From: Pristiophorus japonicus | Taxonomy: Eukaryota | NCBI RefSeq assembly: GCF_044704955.1 | Contig: NC_091994.1 | Coordinates: 89,156,001-89,220,000, forward strand | Length of the DNA stretch: 64,000 nucleotides | Reading direction: 5' to 3' | Shown: one piece after another, positions 7,013 through 57,226 of the stretch | Position numbering within the stretch: position 1 is the stretch's first letter | How the letters are laid out: the number at the start of each line of letters is the position of its first letter | Made by a program: the position numbers and the translations under genes | The notes under the pieces: model-generated | What the model saw: only the letters and a program-made list of their open reading frames with translations | What the model was told of the DNA's origin: nothing | The model's database searches: none

Positions 7013-8210
7013 AAATTCAGTTCCACATTATATAATCACCTCCCCAACTCCTTACATGCTTCTGCTGTATTCAGTATTGTTAACGCCTAACAGTCGATGT
7101 TCAATGATGGTGACTTTATGAAAATGCATCCTCCCCAGTGCAGAAGTAAGTCTAAACAGAAAAAGACTTCCATTTGTATTGCGCCTTTCACGACCACCTG
7201 ACGTCTCAAAGTGCTTACAGCCAATGAAGTAGTTTTGGGAGTGTAGTCACTGTTGTAATGTGGGAAATCTACCAGTATCCTGAAAGTAAACCACTTGTTT
7301 CGTCTCAACTTGGTACTTACACATTAACTTTTTTTTAAATTCCCAAATGTTTGGTCAACTGCCCCTCATTTTGGGTAGACAGGATTCTCTCTCCCCCAGT
7401 TAATTAAATCCGTAATGAAATGCAGCCTCTTGGTACTCACTCAATTTAGGAATTACTCCCTTGTGTCTAATATTTATTTCAAGAAGCATTTTGACAACTT
7501 TTCCCTGAAGATCTGTGTCCAGAAATTGAATTACTTTTGAAACTGCAGCTAAAGACACCACAACCTAGAAAGCTAGGTTTGAATCACATATTATTTGCGA
7601 ATAATAAATCTTTTCAAGTGACAGCTATATCATCCTGCCTTAACAGCAGTTTGCTTGAGCAAATTACACTTTTCATGCATCTGTATGACATTTTGAAAGC
7701 TTTTGTCAACATGGAAATGTGAAAGAAAATATACATTTTTCTATTTTAACTTACTTTGGACCAGTGTACTGAGCCCTACATAGCAGACGAACGTTCCAGG
7801 GTCGATTCCTCACTAGTGTTCTCAGCCAAGATAGCAGTAAAGTATTTAAATTGGTCTCAGCACATCCAGGGCTAGGAAAGGAAAGAACAAAAACAGGCGG
7901 GGCTATGATGTTCTTCTCCCCATGGTCAAAAAGCCTGCTGACAACTGTCCAGCTGATATTTGACAAATGGTCACATGCGTGAAGTACGAGGCCTGCACTC
8001 CAGCAAAAGGGAGTGCAAAAATAAAAATAGTTACCATCATATTTATGCATCCAAACACCCCAGTAGCAACAACAGAAGGCAGGGTAATTTTGCTGGACAC
8101 CAAGATGCCACTTCATGAGTGGCAAGTGAGACAACATTTATACAAGTGGTGCTGACCATACAACATATTGAGAGTTAAAAGAAACGGAAACAATAAATGG
8201 AATGTTAAAC

Positions 8211-11413: not shown

Positions 11414-13626
11414 TGATTAAATATCTCCTTAAATGTCTGCCCCCGTCATCAACTGTCCCATACTTTAATCTATTTTCCCAGTCCACTTTCGCTAACTCTG
11501 CCTTCATGCCTTTGTAGTCATCTTTATTTAAGCTTAAGACACTGGTTTGAGAACTAACTTTCTCACCCTCCAACTGAATTTGAAATTCAACCATGCTATG
11601 GTCATTCATTCCCTGTAAGAAAAGGGATAACCATCCGTGGCTAACTAAGGAAATAAGGGATAGTATCAAATTGAAAATAAGGGCAATGTGGCCAAGACTA
11701 TTGGAGGCCAGAGGAATGGGAAACTTTTAGAAGCCAGCAAAGAATAACTAAAAAAAATGATAGAGAGGTAAGATAGATTATGAAAGTAAACTAGCTCGAA
11801 AGATAAAAACAGATAGTAAGAGTTTCTACAGGCACATAAAAAGGAAAAGAGTGGCTAAAGTAAATGTTGGTCCCCGAGAGAATGAGACTGGGGAATTAAT
11901 AATGGAGAACAGGGAAATGGCAGACGTTGAACAAATATTTTGTAACGGTTTTCGCGGTAGAAGACACTAAAAACATCCCAATAGTAGATAATATAGGGAG
12001 GGAGGAACTGAATACAATCACCATCACTAATGAAGTAGTACTCGGTAAAATAATGGGACTAAAGGCAGACAAGTTCTCTGCACCTGATAGCTTACATCCT
12101 AGGGTATTAAATGAAGTGGCTGTGGAGATAGTGGATGCATTGGTTATAATCTATCAAAATTCCCTGGATTCTGGGGAGGTCCCAGCAGATTGGAAAACCG
12201 CAAATGTAACGCCCCTATTTAAAAAAAGGAGGCAGACAAAAAGCAGGAAACTATAGACCAGTTAGCCTAACATCTGTCATTGGGAAAATGCTGGAGTCCA
12301 TTATTAAGGAAGCAGTAATGGGACATTTGGAAAATCATAATTCAATCAAGCAGAATGAGCATGATTTATGAAAGAGAAATCACGTTTGACAAATTTGCTG
12401 GAGTTCTTTGAGGATGTAACGAGCAGGGTGGATAAGAGGGAACCAGTGCATGTAGTGTATTTGGATTTCCAGAAGGCATTCGATAAGGTGCCACATAAAA
12501 GGTTACTGCATAAGATAAAAGCTCACGGGGTTGGGGGTAATATATTAGCATGGATAGAGGATTGGCTAACTAACAGAAATCAGAGTCGGGATAAATGGGT
12601 CATTTTCCGGTTGGCAAACAATGACTAGTGGGGGTGCCACAGGGACTGGTGCTGGGGCCTCAACTATTTACAATCTATATTAATGACCTGGATGAAGGGA
12701 CCGAGTGTAATGTAGCCAAGTTTGTTGATGATACAATGATGGGTGGGAAAGCAAATTGTGAGGAAATAAAAAATCTGCAAAGGGATATAGACAGGCTAAG
12801 TGAGTGGGCAAAAATTTGGCAGATGGAGTATAATGTTGGAAAGTGTGAGGTCATGCACTTTGGCAGAAATAATAGAAAAGCAAATTATAATTTAAATGGA
12901 GAAAAATTGCAAAGTGCTGTAGTAGAGAGAGACCTGGGGGTCCTTGTGCATGAAACACAAAGTTAGTATGCACGTAGAGCAAGTAATCGGGAAGGCAAAT
13001 GGAATGTTGGCCTTTATTGCAAGGGGGATATAGAGTATAAAAGCAGAGAAGTCCTGCTACAACTGAACAGGGTATTGGTGAGGCCATACATGGAGTACTG
13101 CGTATAGTTTTGGTCTCTGTATTTAAGGAAGGATATACTTGCATTGGAGGCTGTTCAGAGAAGGTTCACTAGGTTGATTCCAGAGATGAGGGGGTTGACT
13201 TATGAAGATAGGTTGAGTAGGTTGTGCCTATATTCATTGGAGTTCAGAAGAATGAGAAGTGATCTTAATGAAGGGGCTCGACAAGGTGGATGCAGAGAGG
13301 ATATTTCCACCCATAGGGGAAACTAAAACTAGGTGACAGTCTCAGAATAAGGGGCCACCCATTTAAAACTGAGATGAAGAGGAATTTCTTCTCTCAGAGG
13401 GTTGTAAATCTATGGAATTCTCTGCTACAGAGAGCTGTAGAGGCTGGGTCATTGAATATATTGAAGGCGGAGATAGACAGATTTTGAGCAGTAAGAGAAT
13501 AAAGGGTTATGGGGAGCGGGAAAGAAAGTGGAGCTGAGTCCATGATCAGATCAGCCATAATCTTACTAAATGGCGGAGCAGGCTCGAGGGGTCAAATGGC
13601 CTACTCCTGCTCCTATTTCTTGTGTT
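11414..13626 (+). mobile_element. CR1 LINE, decayed RT ORF, with inverted segment 11414-11611
   Basis: [34 protein letters not shown] motifs; CR1 3' tail. Confidence 0.92.
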
Positions 13627-28548: not shown

Positions 28549-29766
28549 GGGCAGTAGGTAGGCAAAGACCTGGCTCTAGATCAGCAGCCTACTCTCAGAT
28601 GCCAGTGAACCTAAAGAGGAAGGGAGTAACAGATCGAAGAATTATGTCGTAAGTATTTTCCTTCTTTACTGTGGCCATATAGCTGTGCTCTCTGGAAGAG
28701 GAAAAATATGCCCAGGAAGGACCCAGGAAATGGATATGGTTTGCAGCTGGTTTGGTAAGCTTGTTCCCCAGTTCAAGAGAACAAGTTTATAACACCAATT
28801 TATGGCATATTTATTCTGAGAAATCACAACTTATAAATTTGTAAAAGGAAGATTTTGATTGGGGGGCGGGGGGTGAAATGGAACTAAAAATGGATATACA
28901 GATATCCCCATGACTTCTGTACAATGTGTCAGTTTTGACGGAGTCAGAAGGTATTGGGTTCAAGCCCCACTACAGAGACTTGAGCACATAATCTAGGTTA
29001 ACATTTAAATACAGGTCTGAGAGTACTGCACTGTTGGCGATACTTTCTTTTGGATGTGACATAAGAATTAGAAACAGGAGTAGGCCATCTAGCCCCTCGA
29101 GCCTGCTCCGCCATTCAATAAGATCATGGCTGATCTGGCCGTGGACTCAGCTCCACTTACCCGCCCGCTCCCCATAACCCTTAATTCCCTTATTGGTTAA
29201 AAATGTATCTATCTGTGACTTGAATACATTCAATGAGCTAGCCTCAACTGCTTCCTTGGGCAGAGAATTCCACAGATTCACAACCCTCTGGGAGAAGAAA
29301 TTCCTCTCAACTCGGTTTTTTAAATTGGCTACCCCGTATTTTGAGGCTGTGCCCCCTAGTTCTAGTCTCCCCGACCAGTGGAAACAACCTCTCCGCCTCT
29401 ATCTTGTTGATCCCTTTCATATTTTTTTGAATGTTTCTATAAGATCATCCCTCATCCTTCTGAACTCCAACGAGTAAAGACCCAGTCTACTCAATCTATC
29501 ATCATAAGGTAACCCCCTCATCTCCGGAATCAGCCTAATGAATCGTCTCTGTACCCCTTCCAAAGCCGGTATATCCTTCCTTAAGTAAGGTGACCAAAAC
29601 TGCACGCAGTACTCCAGGTGCGGCCTTACCAACACTCTATACAGTTGCAGCAGGACCTCCCTGCTTTTGTACTCCATCCCTCTCGCAATGAAGGCCAACA
29701 TTCCATTCGACTTCCTGATTACCTGCTGCACCTGCAAACTAACTTTTTGGGATTCATGCACAAGGA

Positions 29767-29924
29767 TTGGAAAAAAGGAAAAATTTGATTTTAGTGCCCA
29801 AAAAAAAACCACAAAAAAACCCCCCAAAAAACAAAAAAGGGCCTTGTAAATGTCTTGTGTGTGTCATCCAGGTCGGGTGGCACGGATACATGTTTTATGT
29901 TTTCGCAGGTAAACTCAAAAGAGT
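29767..29924 (+). mobile_element. Tx1-like non-LTR retrotransposon, 3'UTR-only copy
   Basis: Similar to ~30175-30315; flanked by TTCATGCACAAGGA on both sides. Confidence 0.7.
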
Positions 29925-29939
29925 TTCATGCACAAGGAC

Positions 29940-30315
29940 AACCTGACTGCCTGCCTCTCTTCCGCTCTTACATCCGGTCCAGGGTGTCCTTGGAGATGGA
30001 GCACGCGGTGTCCACCGGTACGCTCGCGGCCTTCCGCGAGAGGTGGGCACCGGAGGGACTGGAGTGCATCATCACGCTCGCCAACCAAATTTTAATTTGA
30101 TTTTACGTTTTAAAGCTTAATTTGTTTTAATTGCCGGTGCTTTTAGTGTCCCCCTCCCCTTTTATAGGGGGCACTGGAGAAAAAATTTGATTTTAGTGCC
30201 CAAAAAAAAACAGAAAAAAGAAAAAAAAAGGGGCCTTGTAAATGTCTGGTGTGTCATCCAGGTCGGGTGGCACCGATTAATGTTTTATGTTTTCCAGATA
30301 AACTCCAAAAAGAGT
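29940..30315 (+). mobile_element. Tx1-like non-LTR retrotransposon 3' end (ORF2 C-terminus plus 3'UTR)
   Basis: DCLPLFRSYIRSRVSLEMEHAVSTGTLAAFRERWAPEGLECII resembles Tx1-clade ORF2 C-termini (recalled similarity); 14-15 bp flanking direct repeat. Confidence 0.7.
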
Positions 30316-31798
30316 TTCATGCACAAGGACCCCCAGGTTCCTCTGCACCTCAGCATGTTGTAATTTCTCCCCATTCAAATAATATTCCCTTTTATTGTTT
30401 CCCTTCCCCCCTCCCCCCCCAAGGTGGATGACCTCACACTTTCCGACATTGTATTCCATCTGCCAAACCTTAGCCCATTCGCTTAACCTTTCTAAATCTC
30501 TTTGCAGCCTCTCTGTGTCCTCCACACAACCCGCTTTCCCACTAATCTTTGTGTCATCTGCAAATTTTGTTACACTACACTCTGTCCCCTCTTCCAGGTC
30601 ATTTATGTATAAAGTAAACAGTTGTGGTCCCAGCACCGATCCCTGTGGCACACCACTAACCACCGATTTCCAACGCAAAAAGGACCCATTTATCCCGACT
30701 CTCTGCTTTCTGTTAGCCAGCTAATTCTCTATCTATGCTAATACATTTCCTCTGACTCCACGTACCTTTATCTTCTGCAGTAACCTTTTGTGTGGTACCT
30801 TATCGAATGCCTTTTGGAAATCTAAATACACCACATCCATCGGTATACCTCTATCCACCATGCTCGTTATATCCTCAAAGAATTCCAGTAAATTAGTTAA
30901 ACATGATTTCCCCTTCATGAATCCATGCTGCGTCTGCTTGATTGCACTATTCCTATCTAGATGTCCCGCTATTTCTTCCTTAATGATAGTTTCAAGCATT
31001 TTCCCCACTACAGATGTTAAACTAACCGGCCTATAGTTACCTGCCTTTTGTCTGCCCCCTTTTTTAAACAGAGGCGTTACATTAGCTGCTTTCCAATCCG
31101 CTGGTACCTCCCCAGAGTCCAGAGAATTTTGGTAGATTATAACCAATGCATCGGCTATAACTTCCGCCATCTCTTTTAATACCCTGGGATGCATTTCATC
31201 AGGACCAAGGGACTTGTCTACCTTGAGTCCCATTAGCCTGTCCAGCACTACCCCCCCTAGTGATAGTGATTGTCTCAAGGTCCTCCCTTCCCACATTCCT
31301 GTGACCAGCAATTTTTGGCATGGTTTTTGTGTCTTCCACTGTGAAGACCGAAGCAAAATAATTGTTTAAAGTCTCAGCCATTTCCACATTTCTCATTATT
31401 AATTATTAAACTGAAGCCCTGCCTGCCCCCTTAAGTGAATGTAAAAGATCTCATGGCACTATATGAAGAAGCGCAGCAGAGTTCGCTGGCATCAGGGCCA
31501 ACATTTATCCCTCAACCAACATGACTAAAATAGATTGTCTGGTCATTTATTTAATTACTGTTTGTGGGACCTTGCTGCCACATTAGCACAGTGAGTACAC
31601 TTCAAAAGTACTTCACTAGCCGTGAATCACTTTGAAGCATCCTGAGGTACTGATAGGCGCTATATAAATGCAAGCTTATTCTTTCTTTACTAATATTAAA
31701 ATGTGCACAAAATAATACTTTTTTTTAATTACTTAATATGTTGTTCACATTCCAAAGCCACTACCATTTCAGAAGTAATATTTATTCCTTATCTTTAC

Positions 31799-42765: not shown

Positions 42766-43041
42766 GTAATATTTTGTTGTAAACATTAATCAAGTGCCCC
42801 CCGATTAAAGAGGGGTCACACTCCAAAAACTTTCCAAGTGCCCCCTTGTTTTTTTTTTGAGGGCACCAAAACACAAATTATACAAGTGTCCCCTGGCTAA
42901 AAGGGTGGGGCGGGGAACTAAAACCGACAAACTTAAACAAATTAAACTTTAGACATGGTTCAAATAAAAATTTGGTTGCCGGGAGTGATAATGCACTCCA
43001 GTCCCTCCGGCGCCCACCTCTCATGGAAGGCCGCGAGCGTA
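42766..43041 (-). mobile_element. Tx1-like 3' fragment inserted in a SINE tail, TSD CCCAAAG
   Basis: Reverse complement of 42960-43043 matches 30018-30100; different 3'UTR. Confidence 0.7.
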
Positions 43042-43199
43042 CCCAAAGAGCTTTACAGCCTGGATACTTGTGTTACATATTTCTGACCTTTGAAAGTACT
43101 TTAAGCTTATGCTTTATAGAAAGTGGCCATTGGAGTAAAATGTAAATCAGCTTCAGTTATAGAAATCTAGCACCCGATGAAAGATTTGTGTCTAGTGAC

Positions 43200-55879: not shown

Positions 55880-57226
55880 ATAAGAACATAAAAAATAGGA
55901 GCAGGAGTAGGCCATATGGCCCCTCGAGCCTGCACCACCATTCAATAAGATCATGGCTGATCTGATCATGGACTCAGCTTCACTTCCTCGCCCGCTCCCC
56001 ATAACCCCTTATCCCCATATCGTTTAAAAAACTGTCTATTTCTGTCTTAAATTTATTCAATGTCCCAGCTGCTACAGTTCTCTGAGGCAGCGAATTCCAC
56101 AGATTTATAACCCTCAGAGAAGAAATTCCTCCTCATCTCAGTTTTAAATGGGCGGCCCCTTATTCTAAGATTATGCCCTCTAGTTCTATCTCCCCCATCA
56201 GTGGAAACATCCTCTCTGCATTCACCTTGTCAAGACCCCTCATAATCTTATACGTTTCGATAAGATCACCTCTCATTCTTCTGAATTCCAATGAGTAAAG
56301 GCCTAACCTACTCAACCTTCCCTCATAAGTCAACCTTCTCATCCCCGAAATCAACCTAGTGAACCTTCTCTGAACTGTCTTCAAAGCAAGTATATCCTTT
56401 CGTAAATATGGAAACCAAAACTGCACGCAGTATTCCAGGTGTGGTCTCACCAATACCTTGTATAGCTGTAGCAAGACTTCCCTGCTTTTATACTCCATCC
56501 CCTTCGCAATAATTGGCCTTCTTGATCACTTGCTGCACCTGCATACTATCCTTTTGTGTTTCATGCACAAGTTCCCCCCAGGTCCCACTGTACTGCAGCA
56601 CTTTGCAATCTTTCTCCATTTAAATAATAACTTGCTCTTTGATTTTTTTTCTGCCAAAAGTGCATCTGCCAAATTTTTGCCCACTCACTTAGCCTGTCTA
56701 TATCTTTTTGCAGATTTTTTGTGTCCTCCTCACACATTGCTTTTCCTCCCATCTTTGTATCGTCAGCAAACTTGGCTACGTTACATTCAGTCCCTTCTTC
56801 CAAGTAGTTAATATAGATTGTAAATAGTTGGGGTCCCAGCACTGATCCCTGCGGCACCCCACTAGTTACTGGTTGCCAACCAGAGAATGAACCATTTATC
56901 CCGACTCTCTGTTCTCTGTTAGTTAGCCAATCCTCTATCCATGCCAATATATTACCCCCAACCCCGTGAACTTTTATCTGGTGCAGTAACCTTTTATGTG
57001 GCACCTCGTCATATGCCTTCTGGAAGTCCAAATACACCACATCCACTGGTTCCCCTTTATCCACCCTGTTCGTTACATCCTTAAGAACTCCATCAAATTT
57101 GTCAAACATGACTTCCCCTTCATAAATCCATGCTGACTCTGCCTGACCGAATTTTGCTTTTCCTAATGTCCTGCTACTGCTTCTTTAATAATGGACTCCA
57201 ACATTTTCCCAACCACAGATGTTAGG
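55880..57226 (-). mobile_element. CR1 LINE 3' portion
   Basis: ORFs 56561-57109 and 56160-56498. Confidence 0.92.

Follow-up and report, generated by a model that had tools for sequence, protein, structure and literature searches.

A Tx1-clade retrotransposon of Pristiophorus japonicus with its apparent main target in ORF2 of a young CR1 LINE

The targets described for retrotransposons of the Tx1 clade are, according to the accessible sections of PMC4494074, a piggyBac element, Mariner, Harbinger and long terminal repeat (LTR) elements, U2, U5 and 5S sequences, satellites and microsatellites. Target lists elsewhere speak of 'transposons' or 'other TEs' (transposable elements), and the available portions of these papers name no long interspersed nuclear element (LINE) among them (PMC4640811, PMC8869645); the accessible text of PMC3747384 contains nothing further on Tx1 targets. 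In vitro, nicking by the endonuclease of the Tx1L element is almost wholly confined to its own target (available part of PMC1950540). The locus described here lies in a stretch of 64,000 nucleotides of the 5.9-Gb genome of Pristiophorus japonicus (C18:89,156,001-89,220,000, contig NC_091994.1; referred to below as the window), where a LINE of the CR1 type is interrupted by two short inserts. Both inserts derive, with 5' truncation, from a Tx1-clade retrotransposon of ~7.2 kb. Its family is real, large, recently active and target-specific, and this retrotransposon very probably uses a site in the second open reading frame (ORF2) of one abundant young CR1 subfamily as its main genomic target.

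A window scan for the 14-mer TTCATGCACAAGGA found three exact copies on the plus strand, an exact copy on the minus strand and a copy with two mismatches at 56560-56573 (Table 1). The five matches with at most two mismatches compare with a mean of 0.94 in shuffled sequence, and five were reached by none of 100 shuffles. An earlier note on this DNA had placed two inserts between three copies of one 14-bp site, and its positions were reproduced exactly. The inserts, for which different 5' truncation points and lengths of 158 and 376 bp had been given, measure 158 and 377 bp (the latter at 29939-30315; 376 bp if the C common to repeats 2 and 3 is counted in a 15-bp duplication). They share the 3' terminus AAAAGAGT and, as had been claimed, their removal makes the host frame whole again on the minus strand, NLGVLVHE running on into SQKVSLQV. 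They are different variants of the 3' untranslated region (UTR), nine edits apart; ends identical to insert 2 occur on other contigs, and ends two edits away from insert 1 occur elsewhere in the genome. The note also held that the empty site is present in other CR1 copies. It is present at 12941 and 56560, but the copies there belong to a different lineage, 77-78% identical to the interrupted host, in which the site is rarely used.

The check proposed in the earlier note was a search with 30100-30315, a flank-free query that contains no target. It gave 1,504 candidates; 40 of them were scored, and the 39 that lie outside the window were fetched. The element end is followed by the exact 14-mer in 20 of the 39 loci, by the 14-mer with at most two mismatches in 32 and by a TTCA start in 38 (in two loci the element end was shifted by one base for this tally); the right flank of the young host lies no more than 800 bp away in 27. 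Genome-wide, the exact 14-mer comes directly after 14,553 element 3' ends, against none for the control, and the bare 14-mer occurs 79,392 times, against five for its reversed control; an exact 31-mer count gave at least 20,084 empty host sites. These genome counts are exact-match lower bounds, in which tandem units and segmental duplicates are included. When one 3'-end variant was counted regardless of its flank, TTTCATGCAC came next in 1,331 of 1,761 cases (76%). Among the same-variant ends listed first on contig C1, 88 of 100 were judged by eye to have the target start; the other 12 comprise two mutated on-target sites, three ends that lie in arrays on or next to an on-target site, three at a second repeat and four elsewhere. 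The flanks are therefore non-random, and genome-wide use of one CR1 site, as the note had supposed, is borne out.

The duplications of host sequence are 12-16 bp long. Variants of the target peculiar to a locus stand on both sides of the insert (L007, L014, L023, L039), and off-target copies are flanked by duplications of their own site, likewise of 12-16 bp (~14; L018, L036, L045-L048), although two others (L015, L043) have no clear duplication. For these two reasons the 14-mer is host DNA that the element duplicates, as had been proposed. The copies thus show both 5' truncation and target-site duplication, the marks of target-primed reverse transcription (TPRT). Ultra-short inserts, consisting of the last 11-13 bp of the element between two full duplications, were also observed (L087, L094, L103, L107, L031, L034). 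In the first 3.3 Mb of C1 identical CR1 and Tx1 loci are repeated (L053, L080-L086, L088), which points to segmental duplications near the contig end. Runs labelled as other organisms contain near-identical element DNA (B, 0.61-0.87 of words; C, 0.41; D, 0.33). When four such runs were compared with a junction-bearing stretch, contigs covered CR1 and the element separately and the empty-site ends of both CR1 lineages were present; no contig bridging the junction was among those listed for the four runs. RNA runs are absent from the list of runs that contain element DNA, which has no bearing on expression.

The full-length unit of ~7.2 kb consists of a ~0.93-kb 5' UTR, ORF1 (698 aa), ORF2 (1,299 aa) and a short 3' UTR, which ends, like the inserts, in AAAAGAGT and has no poly(A). 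One fetched locus carries an intact 1,299-aa ORF2. Pfam identifies in ORF2 an N-terminal apurinic/apyrimidinic-type (APE) endonuclease (Exo_endo_phos, 4.9e-10), a reverse transcriptase (RT; RVT_1, 3.9e-37) and a C-terminal zf-RVT, the last at 4.4e-4, under the curated cut-off. In ORF1 zf-CCHC reached E 0.0044 and 17.5 bits against a cut-off of 20.8, and the CCHC motif CHACREVGHVRKNC is visible in the sequence; a broken ORF1 copy had no Pfam match. The PDB search matched only human L1 and R2 proteins. ORF2 shares 638 of 1,297 residues (49%, over its length) with ORF2 of Xenopus Tx1L. In an RT tree of 30 hand-picked rows, among which no Keno, Koshi, Dewa, Tx1-Mar or L1 row is labelled, the element groups with a stingray sequence at 99/99 (76% RT identity), within a seven-row clade that contains Xenopus Tx1L and turtle and sturgeon proteins and has a support of 100/99. 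Domains, identity and tree together bear out the assignment to the Tx1 clade made in the earlier note. Small RNAs are joined to the 5' ends of some truncated copies: a whole tRNA-Asp with its trailer on a truncated copy (L040:1053-1124), a piece of 5S rRNA carried in three tandem units of L020 (2473-2551, 4261-4340, 6036-6115) and tRNA-like pieces in L024 and L093, called by neither ARAGORN nor Rfam. They resemble the template jumps behind the birth of short interspersed elements (SINEs).

The interrupted LINE spans 31404 to 29059 on the minus strand, and an intact copy of this host region contains an RT domain in Pfam. The best matches of the host ORF2 RT are bird (~50%), turtle (~50%) and Mobula, a ray (61%), with contig proteins reaching up to 72%. 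Among the named proteins nearest to those of element and host are sequences of rays and sharks. The matches of the host RT carry no CR1 label; the name rests on the likeness to bird, turtle and ray LINEs and on bird LINEs being, so far as known, almost all CR1. The host RT is set apart from the Tx1 clade at 100/100 in the same tree, and the RTs of element and host are ~24% identical. Insertion is antisense within CR1 ORF2, at one nucleotide position. The V-L-V-H-E codons of the target lie just past the Pfam RT match and ~0.7 kb from the host 3' end, so that even truncated CR1 copies offer the site and tens of thousands of dispensable targets are available.

Table 1. Features of the interrupted CR1 copy and of the empty sites in the window
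Feature	Positions	Strand	Remarks
Host CR1 LINE, young subfamily, 3' part (ORF2 end and 3' UTR)	29059..29752	-	93-96% to other host copies; 66% (amino acids) against CR1-like ORF2 P0136, residues 754-958
Target-site duplication, copy 1	29753..29766	+	TTTTTGGGA just before; minus strand gives host codons V-L-V-H-E
Insert 1, Tx1 3' UTR fragment, 158 bp	29767..29924	+	Aligns with an intact unit of 7,184 bp at 7033-7184
Target-site duplication, copy 2	29925..29938	+	14-mer scan
Insert 2, coding part (final 53 codons of Tx1 ORF2 with the stop)	29939..30100	+	tblastn, P0001 residues 1235-1299
Insert 2, 3' UTR	30101..30315	+	Ends in CTCCAAAAAGAGT, without poly(A) tail
Target-site duplication, copy 3	30316..30329	+	Followed by host CCCCCAGG
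Host CR1 LINE, RT-coding part	30330..31404	-	Likeness to other host copies stops near 31404 (5' truncation)
Empty 14-mer in an older-lineage CR1 copy	12941..12954	-	TTTGTGT before it; rarely used site
Empty site in another older-lineage CR1 copy	56560..56571	+	12 of 14 bp kept

The window contains further repeats of both kinds. Another Tx1 family, related to the present one (78% DNA identity) but with a different 3' UTR, is represented by a 3' fragment at 42846-43043 on the minus strand, away from the CR1 site, and tblastn found at least 12 more CR1-like fragments of mixed ages on both strands between 9655 and 57231.

The regenerated target had been expected to allow tandem arrays. Tandem build-up is indeed seen, and the junction would restore a usable site, so that arrays could grow; many arrays, however, are not simple repeated insertions, because neighbouring units have a common 5' truncation point and different 3' ends. 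The largest array, C1:9,710,119-9,770,000 (L110-L117), consists of nine units, which extend over 60 kb inside a single CR1 copy, with ORF1 and ORF2 both intact in six of the nine; two other loci contain two and at least three full-length units. Truncation points differ between the units of some arrays, the window included. At six loci (L001, L020, L023, L096, L118, L119) all units have one truncation point and each has a different 3' end; four of these (L020, L023, L118, L119) comprise three units each, and the 3' variants of L020 and L023 recur at other loci. For three pairs of neighbours in the large array the 5' parts differ at 1 of 3,700, 2 of 5,350 and 2 of 2,249 bases and the 3' parts at 15 of 934, 34 of 1,825 and 52 of 4,927 bases, while units taken from other loci as controls show 36-47, 94-184 and 71-117 differences over these 5' stretches. 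Read most simply, these findings suggest that some new insertions are probably finished by a template switch to the adjacent copy, so that their 5' part is that of the neighbour and only their 3' part is new: the new target-primed complementary DNA (cDNA) would pair with the adjacent resident copy and copy its 5' part together with the duplication.

The arrays with a common 5' end might instead have arisen by unequal crossing-over, slippage or ectopic gene conversion, without a template switch. This explanation is the less probable of the two but is a substantial contender. In the 60-kb array units 6-8 differ at three bases or not at all, and units 6 and 8 of L027 are identical; since identical units are present, ordinary tandem duplication contributes. 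The explanation without a template switch does not readily account for the three-unit loci in which each unit has the common truncation point and its own 3' end, for the occurrence of the L020 and L023 variants at other loci or for the polarization of the differences toward the 3' side. Two points speak against the template switch itself. The 5'/3' breakpoints of the neighbour pairs were picked after inspection of the data, and 3' variants recur in the nine-unit array, so that recombination inside the array may have taken place. Reuse of an occupied site is suggested in three cases, at the upstream junction in L040 and L029, where the new 14-bp duplication takes in the first seven bases of the resident unit, and at an internal junction in L090. 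Minisatellite-like arrays of truncated units with mixed 3'-UTR variants and non-CR1 or altered junctions were observed as well (L027:2860-7022, L042).

The choice of the site was examined with matched 40-base patterns in the young CR1 lineage and in an older one, ~78% identical to the host, in which the same 14-mer follows GTGT in place of the GGGA of the young lineage. Occupied sites number 4,530 in the young lineage, against 17,848 empty ones (20.2%), and 14 in the older one, against 3,300 empty ones (0.4%), for an odds ratio of 60. The earlier claim that a conserved CR1 motif is the target holds in that one CR1 site is used, but the 14-mer alone is insufficient, the older lineage being ~50-fold less occupied. 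A second target, between GGGGCGCTA and TTCACAGCCA in another repeat, has 62 junctions at one position (L041, L047, L048, L123-L130). The frame downstream in this repeat looks Myb/SANT-like by eye, a motif known from Harbinger-type transposons; a Pfam search of the frame gave no match, and the repeat is therefore given no name. TTCA is preceded by an A not only at the main site but also at the second target and at the off-target sites L018 and L036, an indication that bases upstream of the duplication are recognized. Recognition therefore probably reaches past the 14-mer on its upstream side (A/TTCA; GGGA as against GTGT). By analogy with Tx1L and with TPRT in general, the APE endonuclease would nick the bottom strand at 5'-CATGAA^TCCC-3', the RT would prime on the 3' end of the element, and a second nick ~14 bp downstream would make the duplication. 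The transcripts of the element may stop at AAAAGAGU or run into the target.

Two further accounts place targeting wholly or partly beyond the reading of DNA by the endonuclease, and together they are considered unlikely. In one, read-through RNA ending in UUCAUGCAC pairs with the nicked strand. Full-length copies in tandem sit right before the 14-mer, which makes read-through plausible, and TTCA is mostly the sole common part of the off-target sites. The older lineage, however, is ~50-fold less used although its matched patterns agree with those of the young lineage in the 24 bases downstream of the nick, so that pairing alone cannot explain the preference; moreover, the A before the nick is common to the main site, the second target, L018 and L036, and this base cannot be seen by pairing with the primer strand. 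In the other account young CR1 loci attract the element through chromatin or CR1 activity, with which the preference for the younger lineage agrees. Several observations weigh against the targeting of one young CR1 subfamily as a whole. Specificity is incomplete, 430 of the 1,761 ends lacking the exact first target bases, and the counts take in segmental duplicates (e.g. L081-L083, L085 and L088, which are identical) as well as tandem units. The older lineage is sometimes used: of eight junctions fetched from its 14 occupied sites, five are clearly there, two are in the young lineage and one is unclear. The low occupancy of the older lineage could stem from chromatin, age, position or downstream bases and not from the upstream ones.

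It is very improbable that a few CR1 masters already carrying a Tx1 insert were multiplied by the CR1 machinery or by segmental duplication. The occupied hosts are nearly all of one CR1 subfamily, duplicate loci exist at the C1 tip and some 5' breakpoints recur across contigs (L003/L009, L007/L032, L002/L011). Nevertheless, the 35 mapped junctions (39 found) have 31 distinct 5' breakpoints, and with 15 duplicated loci left out the median divergence of the host flank is 5.0% among 29 occupied copies and likewise among 11 empty ones. It is on account of these different breakpoints and equal divergences that multiplication of masters is judged so unlikely; insert sizes, in addition, span 12 bp to 60 kb, and the duplication pattern is found at non-CR1 sites too. 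The insertions are accordingly independent, as the two separate variants in the window had suggested. Two readings that would have refuted the earlier note, that the 14-mer belongs to the 3' end of the element (most 3' ends are indeed followed by it) and that the window inserts are a local tandem duplication, can be dismissed: the empty host sites carry the 14-mer, it is missing from off-target copies, which have duplications of their own site instead, and each insert has closer relatives than the other insert, 71 among 108 further 3' ends for insert 2 and 10 among these 108 for insert 1 (in a set enriched for insert-2-like copies by the search query used).

No report of a LINE- or CR1-targeting Tx1 element was found in the literature searched, subscription papers, Repbase and Dfam being mostly or wholly outside its scope, and the target labels in Fig. 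3 and the supplements of PMC4494074 may bear on novelty. ORF2 of an unrelated LINE appears to be undescribed as a Tx1 target. Taken together, with a confidence only slightly better than even, this would be the first described LINE with a sequence-specific target in the RT gene of an unrelated LINE clade, one that interrupts about one fifth of the site-bearing young CR1 copies, tells apart a young and an older lineage that have the 14-bp core in common and, by cDNA template switching, produces arrays of intact elements up to 60 kb long. If so, the element parasitizes another transposon and can influence the dynamics of CR1, besides offering a new APE target specificity. A heterologous LINE would be a new target class for site-specific retrotransposons. 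More than 14,000 junctions, two lineages with a common core and a ~50-fold gap in use, and a minor second target form a very large natural dataset from which the way an APE endonuclease reads DNA could be worked out, and the copies with intact ORF1 and ORF2 make this reading directly testable. The arrays would record how 5'-joining, a poorly understood step of LINE integration, can take a neighbouring copy as template. If active full-length CR1 is interrupted as often as truncated CR1, one LINE would limit another.

Zepp of Chlorella is a self-nesting LINE that uses a fixed site inside a LINE and forms nested and tandem arrays. Its target is its own family, whereas here the target belongs to an unrelated clade, with ~24% RT identity. 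Among the closest described systems is Tx1L of Xenopus laevis, the founder of the clade, which shares with the present element 49% ORF2 identity over 1,297 aa, an RT clade and an APE endonuclease. Tx1L likewise inserts sequence-specifically into another transposable element, but its target Tx1D is, in the accessible part of PMC4494074, a non-autonomous piggyBac DNA transposon and not a CR1 LINE ORF2. The hairpin region of the endonuclease is three residues shorter here (FTWVRPGVGWSRVD as against FTYVRVRDGHVSQSRID in Tx1L), and the bases after the putative nick are TCCC as against AGTT (available part of PMC1950540). The crocodilian families Tx1-Mar, Tx1-8_Crp, Tx1-4_AMi and Tx1-9_AMi, compared by description only, also prefer other transposable elements and have tandem insertions around the duplication and small RNAs at their 5' ends, as the tRNA-Asp and 5S rRNA here; they insert, however, into Mariner, Harbinger and LTR elements and are old, 85-87% identical to the consensus, whereas the present element has a LINE target and copies with both ORFs intact (PMC4494074, accessible sections). 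Keno, Kibi and Koshi are vertebrate target-specific Tx1-clade elements too, but according to the same sections of PMC4494074 they insert into U2 small nuclear RNA genes and (TC)n/(TTC)n microsatellites and not into the coding sequence of a retrotransposon. None of the targets of the named families (Tx1D, Mariner, U2, microsatellite) is used as the main target here, which is CR1 ORF2. The mode of action is thus of an already known kind, that of a target-specific Tx1 element, and the target is apparently the new part.
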